Source: Spirochaetaceae bacterium (lineage in GTDB: Bacteria; Spirochaetota; Spirochaetia; DSM-2461). Taken from it: a stretch of 64,000 nt of DNA. This document shows positions 27,134 to 33,908 of this stretch, one piece after another. The notes below the pieces were generated by a model. That model did no database searches. It saw nothing but the letters and a program-made list of their open reading frames with translations, and had not been told where the DNA came from. The position numbers and the translations under genes were made by a program. Position 1 is the stretch's first letter. Every line of letters starts with the position of its first letter. The stretch spans positions 224,656 through 288,655 of the forward strand of contig JAOPTT010000006.1 of NCBI GenBank assembly GCA_051531975.1. The letters are read 5' to 3'.

Positions 27134-30100
27134 GTGGTTACTGTGGTTACAGAAGATATTGCAGAAAAGGATTCACTTAAACTAATAAGTACTATAGTGG
27201 AACTAACTTCTATAAATAGTCCTATGAATATAGTTCTACAGAAAGTTGTCGATGAGATAATGAGTTCCCTTAGTTTAACAGATATTCTATCGGTTCGACT
27301 AATAATCGATGGTGTAGAATATATGAACTCTGGATTTATTAAAACCTATTGCCTCGAGAAAATTATTCTAGATCTACCTGAGAACAATTCCGGAGTATTT
27401 GAAGTCTATTACGAAAAAAAATATGGTGAAAATGGTGATAGATGTTTTAATTGTCTTTCTATTATTGGAAACATACTTACTGGTTATATCTCAAAAAATA
27501 AGCTAGATAATCTCTACTTTAAGAATCATGAAAGAGTTAAAGGGATAAATAGTATTCAATTGACAAATTTGATATTAAAAAAACACAATACACTAAGCGA
27601 CTCACTTCAGGAGATCTGTAATCTTCTTCCAGAAGCATGGCAATTCCCCAAGTATACAGCAGCCCGTATTTTCTTTGATGAAAAAGTATTTGAAAGTAGC
27701 CGATTTAAAGAGACGACCTGGTCACTTAATAAAAGTTTTGAAACTCCAGATAACAAAAAAGTTGAAATTGAAGTATTTTATCTAAAAGAATTTCCAAAAG
27801 CAGATATTGGACCTTTTTTAAACGAAGAACAATCTCTACTAGATATTTTAGCCTCCATAATTTCTGGAACTTACTCCAATCGTTCCCTTCAGGAACTATT
27901 GGAACACAATACTGAGCGTTTAAAAGAATTAAGGGGTATTAATAGGACTTCTGAAATTCTTAAAAATAGTAGTTCTGTAGAAGAGTCCCTGGAAGAAGTT
28001 TGTAATATCTTACCAGAAGCATGGAAACATCCTGAAGATACTGTTGTAAGGATCAGTTATAACGATAAGATTTTTACAAGTGAAAATTTCAGGGAGAGTA
28101 TATGGGTACAACATCAGAGTTTTGAGTGTCCTGGAAATAAGAAGGGCGAAATAGAGGTCTTTTTACTAAAAGAGTATGCAGTAGAAGATGAAGGCCCTTT
28201 TTTAAAAGAAGAGAGAGACCTTCTAGTAAATCTTGCTCGTTTAATATCTGGTTCTGCAGGTAGTGATGTATTAAAAAAACTTATTTTTGAAAATAATGAA
28301 CGTCTTAAAGAGCTTAGAGCAATTAATATGACATCAAAAATTATCTCAGAATATAAACCTGTAGATCAAACAATGTTTGAAATTACTTCAATATTAAAGA
28401 TGTCCTGGCAGTATCCTGAGTTTACAGAGGTAAAAATCCATTATGAGGGCTGTAACTATACTTCAGAAGGTTTTAGAGAGACATCCTGGAATCAGAAAGA
28501 GAACTTTATAACAATTGATAATAATAAGGGGTATATTCAGGTTGTCTATCTTAAAGAATTTCCAACCTCTGACGAAGGACCCTTCCTAAGGGAGGAGAGA
28601 GACCTTCTAATTAACATTGGAAAACTGATAAGTGGATATTTTAATAATAATAAAGGACGGGATATTTTTAGAAAGAATGTCCATAAGCAAAGGCAGATAG
28701 AGAAGCCTGAAGAGTATAAAAAGATGTTTATGACTAATAAGAGACCTCTTCAGTTATTCTTTAATCAGCAAGTTATCGATAAATATATTTATATGGACAT
28801 GATGAAATATAAAGTTAAAGAGATTCTTTTTGTCGCAACATTTTACGATGCCTTTATACTTGAAAATGAAGACGGTTTTTTTGAACGTTTTATGGGTGAA
28901 ATATATCAATATAGCCTCTTCTCCTTACCTAGAATTACCGGGGTTACAACCTCAGAAGAAGCTCTTGAAATGTTAGATAACAAATCGTTTGATCTGGTTA
29001 TTTTAATGGCAGGTCTTGATAGGGAAGCTCCGGTTTTACTAAGCGAAAAGATAAAAGATAAAACTCCTTCTCTTCCTGTATACATTCTACTTAATCAGAA
29101 GAGTAATATTAAATACTTTGAAGCAAAAGTTACATCATCTAAAACATTGGACAATCTATTTTACTGGAATGGTGATTCTGAGATTCTGTTTTCTATTGTA
29201 AAATCCATAGAAGATAGAGCTAATGTGGCCAATGATACCCAAGTTGGGTTGGTTCGGGTTATTCTTATAGTTGAAGATTCTTGTCTCTATTATTCAAAAT
29301 ATCTACCAATGTTATATAGTATTGTCTTTGGTCAGGTTCAGAGACTTTTACCAGAAGTCGAGAAGAATGAACTAGATAAAATTTGTAAAATGAGATCTAG
29401 ACCCAAGGTTCTTTTGGCTAGGAATTATGAAGACGCAATGTATCTGTTTAACAAATATAAGGATTACCTATTATGTGTTATCTCGGATATTGAGTTTGAC
29501 CATGGAGGGCAACTAGATAAAAAAGCGGGTATAAATTTTATCAAGTATGTTAAATCACATATGGTCAAATTGCCTATTATTCTTCAATCTTCAAACGCTA
29601 GAAACAAGAAGAAAGCGAAAGATCTTGATGTTTTCTTCATAAATAAAAACTCAGATACTCTTTTAAACGATCTAAAAAAGTATCTAAACTCATATCTCGG
29701 GTTTGGTAACTTTATTTTTCAGGATAAAAATGGACAGAAGATTGCAGAGGCTCGAACTCTGAAGGAATTTGAAAAGCAACTTGCAGTTGTTCCTGACGAG
29801 ACACTTTATTTACATGCTATTGCAAATCAGTATTCTATTTGGCTGATGGCAAGAGGTGAAATAACTCTGGCCAAAACAATAAATCCAATGCGGATAGAAT
29901 CCTTGGATAACATATCACTAACTAGAACACAATTAATTAGTATCATAAAAGATTCTCAGGATGAAAAAAAGAAAGGTAAAGTTTTTCGTTTTGAAGAAGA
30001 TACTCTGTTTACTGAGCAAAATATAGTAACTTTTGCTGATGGATCTCTTGGAGGAAAAGGTAGAGGTTTGGCATTTATAAATACACTTATTTATAATTTT

Positions 30101-32555: not shown

Positions 32556-33908
32556 ATGTCTACTATTTCAAATGTTAAAGTTAATGAGTTTATGGCAAAG
32601 GTTATTGCAAAGAATCAAGGTGAATCAGAATTTCACCAAGCAGTTCAAGAGGTTGTAGAATCTCTATTACCATATTTAGAAGATAATCCAGAATACAAAT
32701 ATGCGAAAGTTTTAGAAAGAATGGTAGAACCAGAAAGAGTTTTAATGTTTAGAGTTTCTTGGACAGACGATAAAGGTGAAGTTCAGATTAACCGTGGTTT
32801 TAGAATTCAAATGAACAGTGCTATTGGTCCATATAAAGGTGGTCTTAGACTTCACCCTACAGTAAACTTAGGAATCCTAAAATTCTTAGCATTTGAGCAA
32901 GTTTTTAAGAACAGTTTAACCACACTTCCTATGGGTGGGGGTAAAGGTGGATCTGACTTTGATCCTAAAGGCAAATCAGACAACGAAGTAATGCGTTTCT
33001 GTCAGTCTTTCATGACTGAGCTTTGTAGACATATTGGTGCTAACACCGATGTTCCTGCTGGAGATATTGGTGTTGGTGGTCGAGAGATCGGTTTCCTTTT
33101 TGGACAATATAAAAGAATTAAAAATGAGTCTGTTGGTATCTTAACTGGTAAGGGTCTTACTTGGGGTGGTTCTTTAATCAGACCTGAAGCGACTGGTTAC
33201 GGTGCAGTATACTTTGCAGAGCAGATGTTAAAAACAAGATCAGAATCTTTTAAAGGTAAAATTGTTGCTATTTCTGGTTCTGGAAACGTTGCTCAGTACG
33301 CTGTTGAAAAAATTATTGAACTAGGTGGAAAAGTTGTAACTCTTTCAGATTCTTCTGGGTATATATATGATGAAAATGGTATTGATTCAGAAAAGCTTGC
33401 TTTTGTTCTTGATCTTAAAAATGCAAGACGTGGACGAATCTCTGAGTATGCTGATAAATTTGGTGCAAAATATTTTGCAGGTAAAACACCATGGGAAGTA
33501 AAATGTGATTTAGCTCTTCCATGTGCTACACAAAACGAAATTAGTAAATCTGATGCAGAGAGTCTTGTTAAGAACGGTTGTTACTTAATAAGTGAAGGTG
33601 CAAATATGCCTTCTACACCAGAAGCAGTAAATGTATTTATCGATGCAAAAATTCTTTTTGGTCCAGGTAAAGCCGCTAACGCCGGTGGAGTTGCTGTATC
33701 AGGTCTTGAAATGAGTCAAAACTCTATGCGTCTTGCATGGACTTCAGAAGAAGTTGATGCAAAACTTAAGCGGATCATGACTGATATTCATGAAACATGT
33801 GTAAAGTATGGTAAAGATGAAACTGGATATGTGAACTATGTTAATGGAGCAAATATTGGTGGTTTTGTTAAAGTTGCTGATGCAATGATGGCTCAAGGTT
33901 ATGTTTAA
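32556..33908 (+). CDS. gdhA: Glutamate dehydrogenase (NADP-specific type)
   Basis: [55 protein letters not shown]. Confidence 0.97.

Follow-up and report, generated by a model that had tools for sequence, protein, structure and literature searches.

VadK (Rv1127c) of Mycobacterium tuberculosis is described as a derivative of PPDK (pyruvate phosphate dikinase) that lacks the barrel domain, autophosphorylates on His422 and binds the methylcitrate-cycle enzymes that it regulates (PMC13400623, in the portion of the source available). Fusions of a receiver (REC) with a PPDK domain have so far only been listed in censuses, including that of Maule 2015, where Asp-less receivers are enriched with PPDK effector domains (PMC4395418, again for the available portion). 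Our literature search found no paper that characterises the family treated here or links it to glutamate dehydrogenase (GDH). Here, we describe a three-gene cassette in a 64,000-nt stretch of DNA (the window) from a Spirochaetaceae bacterium (assembly GCA_051531975.1, contig JAOPTT010000006.1, positions 224,656 to 288,655 of the forward strand), which encodes a large dikinase-like protein (gene 1), a NarL/LuxR-family regulator (gene 2), and a GDH (gene 3, gdhA). An earlier interpretation of the window, made from the letters and their translations (the sequence-only reading), took gene 1 for a dikinase repurposed as a signal kinase that controls GDH, and our analysis supports it in part. The domain anatomy, the residue conservation, the linkage of the genes, and the conservation and uniqueness of a palindromic site in front of gdhA are observed, and they point to a receiver-gated, VadK-like half-dikinase that would signal to gdhA through an Asp-less regulator and perhaps also act on GDH directly, a reading to which we give about an even chance. 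The palindromic candidate operator is new here; the domain combination of the family is already present in the censuses.

The three open reading frames (ORFs) lie on the same strand, as the sequence-only reading had observed, and residue numbers below refer throughout to the 1524-residue ORF of gene 1:

27134..31708, + strand: gene 1, a sensor-repeat / pseudo-REC / REC / ATP-grasp / His-carrier protein, ORF of 1524 amino acids

31711..32373, + strand: gene 2, a NarL/LuxR-family regulator with an Asp-less receiver (H56) and a GerE helix-turn-helix (HTH), 220 amino acids

32556..33908, + strand: gene 3, NADP-specific glutamate dehydrogenase of family I, gdhA, 450 amino acids

The probable start of gene 1 is the GTG at 27143, which has an AGGAG 8 nt upstream and gives a product of 1521 residues; the 100% identical database entry is also 1521 residues long. 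Thiospirochaeta perfilievii encodes a protein that is 84% identical to it (EW093_11515), and orthologues occur in Draconibacterium and Paludibacter. The 2-nt gap noted earlier between the first two genes consists of AA, located between the stop codon TAG (31706-31708) and the ATG at 31711, and gene 2 is, to judge from the sequence, translationally coupled to gene 1. A spacer of 182 nt separates the regulator from gdhA, whose identity is established at the equivalog level (NF006929, 773 bits with a cut-off of 536; Pfam ELFV_dehydrog, 317.9 bits).

The proposed link to gdhA was followed in the 80 closest loci, which come from Bacteroidales, Prolixibacteraceae, and Spirochaetes. The regulator stands directly downstream of gene 1 in 50 of the 65 close loci with at least 700 nt of downstream sequence, and among the 62 with at least 2.4 kb downstream, gdhA follows on the same strand in 46 and is accompanied by the regulator in 43. 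A search of 1.84 billion cluster representatives returned 4178 members of the family at E<=1e-3 and 952 at E<=1e-30, most of which are proteins of ~1000 residues that consist of the REC-REC-linker-ATP-grasp-His core alone. The sequence-only reading had put forward that such shorter REC-PPDK_N proteins often flank gdh, and the survey bears this out. We surveyed 79 short-family loci, in 70 of which the family gene was recovered by our ORF rule, and a GDH gene lies no more than three ORFs away in 33 of these 70, spread over more than 10 phyla. Mostly this GDH gene is directly adjacent, before or after the family gene and on either strand relative to it, and it belongs to one of two GDH classes (26-77% identity to the gdhA of the window). 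These loci come from Desulfobacterales, Ignavibacteria, Acidobacteriota, Cloacimonadota, Calditrichia, Zixibacteria, Planctomycetota, Gemmatimonadota, Eisenbacteria, Thermoplasmatota, and others; the family is found in over 10 phyla of bacteria and also in some archaea. Only 4 of the 70 loci have a gene 2-like regulator; the next commonest neighbours, in 3-4 loci each, are GltD-like and PyrK-like oxidoreductase subunits and a glutamine-dependent NAD synthase, and histidine kinases are rare (clusters of 3 and 2 loci). Among 41 relatives of the present genome, 31 carry a member of the family and 8 carry the long form.

Tandem paralogues of the family gene were seen in 9 of the 70 short-family loci. 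Pairs of ~1150 followed by ~990-1010 residues are present at loci L066, L070, L076, L078, L051, L135, and others, several of them directly upstream of gdhA, and both copies retain the His motif where complete. A regular-expression search yielded five pairs and no kinase/pseudokinase pattern. No close relatives in named Bacteroides genomes were found among the loci returned. Some gut records with a Bacteroidales-type gene (L191-L226) are titled Pseudobutyrivibrio, Bifidobacteriaceae, Clostridium, or Eggerthellaceae and are probably mis-binned or mislabelled.

Gene 1 is composed of the following parts:

27134..28681, + strand: four repeats of ~129 residues, a degenerate R0 (residues 1-128) and R1-R3 (residues 129-516), found by self-comparison

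28814..29179, + strand: REC1, a receiver fold without the acceptor Asp (M625 in its place), from the AF2 secondary structure and the PleD-like tandem

29249..29710, + strand: REC2, a receiver with a complete phospho-acceptor pocket, E714, D715, D785 (codon 29486-29488), S819, and K838

29711..29977, + strand: a linker domain with weak DUF5752 similarity (PF19027, 18 bits, below cut-off)

29978..31150, + strand: a nucleotide-binding ATP-grasp domain of the type found in PEP (phosphoenolpyruvate) synthase (PPS), PPDK, and rifampin phosphotransferase (RPH), from the PPDK_N match, the fold, and the signature residues

31151..31705, + strand: a C-terminal swivel-like domain with GPGRWG and S-x-G-[ST]-H-F-F-[HQ]-N motifs, from conservation and the domain model

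The ATP-grasp domain is intact, as had been claimed. It matches Pfam PF01326 (PPDK_N) over residues 971-1340 with an E of 1.8e-38 and 133 bits (cut-off 27), and a sequence profile aligns with RPH across the AVRSS..ED..FAG segment at E 1.9e-13. We modelled residues 540-1524 with AF2 on 108 diverse homologues of 31-58% identity, which also serve for the conservation counts of gene 1 below, and obtained a pLDDT of 91.8 and a pTM of 0.86. In this model, the ATP-grasp fold matches RPH (5hv1, Foldseek E 3.7e-12) and aligns over 277 residues with the isolated ATP-binding domain of RPH (5hv6_A, Z 24.1); Z is 24-27 for RPH and PEP synthase and 18-27 for the solved members overall. The signature residues are conserved in 102-108 of the 108 homologues, e.g., K975 (107), R1067 (108), D1074 (108), E1315 (107), and Q1334 (107). 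The PEP/pyruvate barrel is another matter: PEP-utilizers_C gave no Pfam match in gene 1 at E<=0.1, the product terminates 67 residues past the His motif, and neither a barrel nor a rifampin-binding domain, the substrate-binding modules of known type, was detected in gene 1 by Pfam or fold comparison. The best NCBIfam PEP-synthase score is 59 bits with a cut-off of 883, and all equivalog cut-offs are missed widely. Because it has no barrel, gene 1 is not expected to encode a PEP synthase, as the sequence-only reading had anticipated, and we rejected the ordinary PEP synthase as a candidate on both grounds. HisKA/DHp and HATPase_c likewise have no Pfam match in gene 1, which is not a classical two-component histidine kinase, and HisKA is absent from all three genes by Pfam, also in agreement with the earlier statement.

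The C-terminal domain carries the SLGSHFF motif that had been likened in position to the phospho-His motif of swivel domains. Its His1457 (codon 31502-31504) is conserved in 105 of the 108 homologues, and R1417, G1426, E1442, and G1455 are invariant in all 108. Alignments of the whole model do not stop at the ATP-grasp: they reach the His-carrier domain of PEP synthase (2ols; Z 26.8 over 361 residues, with model 409..985 on chain 10..467) and those of PPDK (1kbl, ending at residue 507) and RPH (5hv2, ending at residue 867). The domain modelled in isolation (pLDDT 89.3) places H1457 at the N-terminus of a helix, between two strands; the catalytic His residues of PPDK and Enzyme I have the same helix-start placement. 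In an exhaustive VIA search of 48,161 chains with this isolated domain, 6 of the top 9 matches are phospho-His-type carrier domains at their exact domain ranges: the PPDK carrier domain (2fm4, Z 6.4), the extra C-terminal domain of Bacillus stearothermophilus pyruvate kinase (2e28, Z 6.2), maize PPDK (1vbg, residues 375-513, Z 6.1), RPH (5hv1, residues 755-867, Z 6.0), and Enzyme I (2wqd and 5woy, Z 5.5 and 5.3), with the Enzyme I His domains overall at Z 4.7-5.5. Other matches include LD-carboxypeptidase C-domains, chaperonin apical domains, transferrin-receptor apical domains, and aconitase X, which we take to be members of the "swivelling beta/beta/alpha" fold class. The fold evidence is thus moderately positive: the modelled domain resembles phospho-His carrier domains most, and H1457 is a candidate phospho-His. 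The positional claim stands in this respect, but no similarity to carrier domains was found at the sequence level.

Two receiver folds precede the linker in the AF2 model, as had been suggested from the sequence, and Foldseek matches the REC-REC segment to PleD at E 2.9e-8; the Pfam receiver matches are weak (25.3 and 15.9 bits) and both below cut-off. The acceptor position of REC1 is Met in 60 homologues, Thr in 15, Leu in 8, and Ser in 5. REC2 superimposes on solved receivers (ComE, ArcA, ArlR, and others) with Z 13-15 and a root-mean-square deviation of about 2 Å, and its pocket is retained in most of the homologues (E714 in 102, D715 in 93, D785 in 94, S819 in 100, and K838 in 102). Because REC2 has a complete acceptor pocket, the gene 1 product appears to be a response regulator itself and would need an upstream phosphodonor. 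D785 is missing in 14 of the 108 homologues, often along with D715. Asp785 is probably dispensable for the core function, because 13 of these 14 proteins keep H1457 and the ATP-grasp residues intact. Moreover, because the Asp can be absent while the ATP-grasp and the His are the most conserved elements, REC2, together with the repeats, would act as input, and the ATP-grasp/His unit would be the output engine. The linker domain is folded in the model (pLDDT 84-96) and reaches 0.84-0.85 in the Atlas to clusters bearing DUF5752, a lead only; it is possibly a substrate- or partner-binding module.

The N-terminal repeats described by the sequence-only reading are genuine. R1-R3 share 37-48% pairwise identity (E 1e-32 to 1e-41), and R0 is related to R3 with 22% identity (E 1e-7). 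No Pfam family matched them, and the best match of their profile to the sequences of solved structures (E 0.05) is not meaningful. In the Atlas they fall closest to unnamed clusters (0.96-0.98), with GAF clusters only at 0.89, so that a GAF-like nature is a lead only. A profile search for other architectures returned mainly the gene 1 family itself, and the long N-terminal repeats and the regulator are found in the same subfamily. We regard the repeats as a sensor-like module.

Gene 2 matches GerE (64.7 bits) and Response_reg (39.5 bits), both above the Pfam cut-offs, and reaches no NCBIfam equivalog cut-off. Its acceptor position is occupied by His56 (ILILHPV), as the description of a His-substituted regulator had it, but this His is not conserved: in 52 orthologues the position is Asn in 42, Thr in 5, His in 2, Ser in 2, and Gly in 1, and never Asp. 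A role of the His as a conserved or general phospho-acceptor was rejected, with His in 2 of the 52 orthologues. The conserved feature of the regulator thus appears to be the loss of the Asp, not the gain of a His. Ser84 is kept in 50 of the 52 orthologues and Lys/Arg106 in 47, and the recognition helix does not vary among 61 orthologues. Asp-less receivers are commonly controlled through partner binding, according to the available portion of Maule 2015 (PMC4395418). A complex prediction of gene 1 residues 701-1524 with the regulator receiver (residues 1-130) gave a score of 0.00 (mark 0.32) and is uninformative either way.

The spacer between the regulator and gdhA contains the following site:

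32412..32428, no strand: a 17-bp perfect palindrome TTAAGTG-TTT-CACTTAA (TTAAGTGTTTCACTTAA), 128 nt upstream of the gdhA ATG

We consider this palindrome a candidate operator of the regulator. The pattern TTNNGTGWWWCACNNAA has one match in the window, where 0.02 are expected, and this is also the sole match in the 5.46-Mb genome. A 17-bp near-palindrome is common to the regulator-gdhA spacers, with the consensus TTACGT[GA]AAACACGTAA and symmetric arm variants such as TTCAGTG..CACTGAA and TTCCGTG..CACGGAA. The site, counted at 12 or more matching positions of 17, is present in 44 of 61 distinct spacers from Bacteroidota and Spirochaetota, 88-337 nt from the ATG; in 200 shuffles, the mean was 0.42 and the highest value 2. 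At 13 or more of 17 positions, the 80 cassette loci (1.11 Mb) contain 49 sites, distributed over 39 loci, and 33 of these sites fall within the regulator-gdhA spacer. The short-family loci (0.99 Mb) have 3 such sites, and a gut Bacteroidales subfamily (0.42 Mb) has 2. In all 6 spirochaete relatives examined, the regulator, gdhA, and an intervening site are present. Conversely, none of the 4 loci with one or more family genes and gdhA and no adjacent regulator has a site upstream of gdhA, even at 12 or more of 17 positions. The strict pattern across the genomes of the 41 relatives gave 16 sites in 15 genomes, barely above the background of a control pattern (10 sites in 9 genomes); only the position between the regulator and gdhA carries evidence, not the genome-wide presence. 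Judged by this position, the conserved putative operator now ties the regulator to gdhA.

At one further locus (L038:4371-6786), a perfect consensus site lies ~80 nt upstream of a PyrK-like (DHODB_Fe-S_bind) and GltD-like (Fer4_20 + Pyr_redox_2) gene pair, which is situated just upstream of the cassette; gdhA is absent downstream in that locus. This suggests a small regulon around NADPH-dependent ammonium assimilation, of which the pair may be a second member that supplies NADPH. A promoter scan of the window (33 sites, 31.7 expected) was uninformative; a 9/12 promoter match lies at 32447-32475, and an activator-like position of the operator relative to it is speculation.

What follows on autophosphorylation, its gating, the route to the regulator, the sign of gdhA control, and a direct effect on GDH is inferred. 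The ATP-grasp domain would phosphorylate His1457 of the C-terminal swivel-type carrier domain from ATP, i.e., dikinase chemistry without the barrel; by analogy with PPS, PPDK, RPH, and VadK, phosphorylation of its own His is the most likely activity of this engine. Phosphorylation of Asp785 in REC2, by a histidine kinase or HPt protein encoded elsewhere, would gate the half-dikinase activity, and the four sensor repeats would provide an additional gate in the long form. The signal would reach the Asp-less regulator either by phosphotransfer to a non-Asp residue or by phosphorylation-dependent binding and release, and a regulator dimer bound to the 17-bp palindrome would set the transcription of gdhA. 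A direct effect on GDH, exerted on the protein or on the reaction it catalyses, was probably the ancestral output, because the regulator-less core proteins of ~1000 residues adjoin GDH genes in many phyla, and it may persist in this cassette. The claim that a dikinase serves as a signal kinase is supported in part, in that gene 1 is not a PEP synthase and is linked to GDH and the regulator, but the protein is not a stand-alone replacement for a histidine kinase, since REC2 needs a donor.

Several observations weigh against this half-dikinase mechanism, which was derived from sequence, fold, and linkage. A PEP-utilizers domain has no Pfam match in gene 1 at E<=0.1, a genome search with PF00391 gave 7 matches and none in gene 1, and hhalign of the C-terminal domain with 28 carrier domains from the relatives' genomes returned a probability of 0.6%. 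Foldseek with the isolated domain found nothing at E<=1e-3, the best PPDK row having an E of 0.041 at rank 2, and the VIA scores of about 6 are below the caution line of that tool (Z 8), with a DRTGG domain, not a His carrier, in the top row (Z 6.7). Most characterised enzymes of the superfamily phosphorylate small molecules, not proteins. No candidate phosphodonor of REC2 is linked to gene 1, and the 52 regulator orthologues share no obvious acceptor residue. A recognisable site is missing from 17 of the 61 spacers, and the co-occurrence of motif and regulator is partly confounded by phylogeny. Finally, the linkage to gdhA and LuxR-type regulators that the neighbourhood survey found conserved among the close loci does not extend to a subfamily of gut Bacteroidales (animal gut, 36 loci), where gdhA was found in none of the 36 loci and the regulator in 1 within 5 kb.

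In place of a protein target, gene 1 might be a receiver-regulated metabolic dikinase with a small-molecule substrate from the glutamate / 2-oxoglutarate / NADPH node, bound by the DUF5752-like linker or by REC1, and the regulator and gdhA might be no more than co-regulated neighbours. The closest solved relatives (rifampin phosphotransferase, HpeI, PEP synthase, and PPDK) all use small molecules, an extra domain is conserved in front of the ATP-grasp, and metabolic neighbours recur (GDH, GltD-like, PyrK-like, and NadE). However, no domain like the known substrate-binding modules was detected, sensor repeats and two receivers, together with a coupled transcription factor, make up an architecture typical of signalling, and VadK is a barrel-less relative that works by protein-protein regulation; we therefore hold this explanation to be unlikely. 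We put slightly lower the chance that gene 1 is a non-catalytic sensor or anti-regulator without phospho-His chemistry, which would sequester or release the regulator upon ligand binding, ATP binding, or REC2 phosphorylation in the manner of AmiC/AmiR, an example of a partner-controlled Asp-less receiver. The translational coupling of genes 1 and 2 and the joint occurrence of long repeats and regulator in one subfamily would fit such a role, as would the frequent control of Asp-less receivers by partner binding (PMC4395418, available portion). Against it, the His, the G-[ST]-H-F-F motif, and the ATP-grasp signature are near-invariant over 108 sequences, which argues for retained catalysis, and the core family is linked to GDH in loci without any regulator.

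The conservation of both His and Asp could also be explained by a self-contained phosphorelay, in which the ATP-grasp/His1457 unit phosphorylates Asp785 of its own REC2 and an external kinase is unnecessary. Such a relay would account for the absence of a HisKA kinase from the three-gene locus and for the rarity of histidine kinases beside the short family, but it appears improbable: 13 of the 14 homologues without D785 retain H1457, as expected if the Asp is a regulatory input and not an obligatory relay station, and transfer from a swivel His to a receiver Asp is not known to have a precedent. Least probable by far is that the arrangement is inherited synteny without a functional link and that the palindrome belongs to an unrelated regulator of gdhA. 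The close cassette loci do come mostly from related Bacteroidales and Spirochaetes, so that their counts are not independent, and the gut subfamily lacks the linkage; yet adjacency to GDH genes recurs in more than 10 phyla, with two GDH classes and with varied order and orientation, the motif was not found upstream of gdhA in any of the four regulator-less loci, and one gdhA-less locus has a perfect site before another target upstream of the cassette.

Beyond the preferred reading of a receiver-gated half-dikinase that signals through the regulator, a bolder version is that REC-REC-ATP-grasp-His proteins form a hitherto unrecognised class of protein-directed dikinases, charged from ATP at a remodelled swivel His, that covalently phosphorylate GDH and, where the protein is of the long form, a non-Asp residue of the regulator too, which would constitute a two-level switch. 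We regard this version as doubtful, if less so than the alternatives just discussed. If true, enzyme and transcription would be switched together at the carbon-nitrogen node, alongside control of the PII/NtrBC type. Reversible in vivo inactivation has been attributed to the GDH of Bacteroides, and our literature search gave no confirmation of it. A 1996 title by Baggio and Morrison reportedly refers to one or more trans-acting genes downstream of gdhA in B. thetaiotaomicron, which may or may not be connected with the present cassette.

The cassette is preceded by a RecQ-like helicase gene and followed by genes for a hydrolase, a LytS/LytTR pair with CstA, and a hybrid kinase with an HPt domain. 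Kinases of the window outside the cassette include the LytS-type kinase at 34867 and the hybrid kinase with HPt at 42471. The other features seen in the window are as follows:

33942..33984, + strand: a possible terminator 3' of gdhA, a CCTCG...CGAGG stem followed by TTTATTTT, identified by eye with low confidence

34867-38855, + strand: three consecutive genes, for a LytS-type kinase (5TMR-LYT, GAF, His_kinase), a LytTR regulator, and a CstA transporter

42471-46037, + strand: a hybrid histidine kinase of 1188 residues with GAF, HisKA, HATPase, two receivers, and HPt

15715-17286 and 17439-19181, + strand: adjacent caspase-domain (Peptidase_C14) proteins, the second fused to an FGE-sulfatase-like domain

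19331-25206, - strand: a MacB-like ABC exporter (ATPase and two FtsX permeases), a LolA-like protein, and a 421-residue protein without a Pfam family

The possible terminator is absent from the computed hairpin scan, the limit of which is exceeded by its loop. The LytS-type unit, directly downstream of the cassette, looks like a pyruvate- or peptide-sensing system of the BtsSR/YpdAB kind. The hybrid kinase is a conceivable phosphodonor of REC2, and no evidence connects it to gene 1. The G+C content is 0.24-0.27 at 46000-56000 of the window and 0.29-0.35 around the cassette.

GDH stands at the junction of carbon and nitrogen metabolism, and its control is poorly understood in Bacteroidota, Spirochaetota, and many uncultured phyla. 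The cassette offers a complete testable circuit, with a sensor enzyme, a regulator, a single operator, and a single target gene, and it represents a family of thousands of members, none of them characterised, which accounts for the recurrent mis-annotation "PEP synthase / PEP/pyruvate-binding protein". If our reading is correct, VadK is not a mycobacterial oddity, and dikinase-based regulation would be widespread and plugged into two-component signalling.

In its putative parts, the cassette combines a half-dikinase with a regulatory role, a response regulator whose output is enzymatic, and a LuxR regulator of the Asp-less kind, each of which has counterparts among known systems. In the phosphotransferase system, Enzyme I passes a phosphoryl group from a swivel phospho-His domain to the protein HPr, but Enzyme I is charged by PEP through the barrel, whereas gene 1 would be charged by ATP through the ATP-grasp, and no HPr-like partner was seen here. 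Rifampin phosphotransferase, PEP synthase, and PPDK (5hv1, 2ols, and 1kbl) share with gene 1 the ATP-grasp fold, the signature residues, and, as far as the model indicates, a swivel-type domain with a conserved His; in comparison, gene 1 has no substrate domain, its putative His domain is remodelled beyond sequence recognition, and a signalling extension of ~950 residues is added at the N-terminus. Regulators of the PleD type (REC-REC-GGDEF) likewise place one phosphorylatable and one adaptor receiver before an enzymatic output, although in gene 1 the pseudo receiver comes first, PleD having the other order, and the output is a half-dikinase instead of a cyclase. Gene 2 resembles the NarL/LuxR regulators with an Asp-less receiver (ALR) in joining a receiver to a GerE HTH and in keeping the Ser/Thr and Lys while the Asp is replaced; it differs in being paired and apparently coupled with a dikinase-type protein instead of standing as an orphan, and in having a single-copy palindromic candidate target before gdhA. 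VadK, at about 50 kDa, has no receivers, sensor repeats, or dedicated transcription factor, its PPDK His domain is recognisable, and its target is the methylcitrate cycle. Nevertheless, it has in common with gene 1, by architecture, an ATP-binding dikinase domain and a (in gene 1 putative) phospho-His domain without the barrel, a regulatory role that is proposed for gene 1, and a link to metabolic enzymes, and by this analogy VadK would be the closest characterised precedent for the cassette described here.

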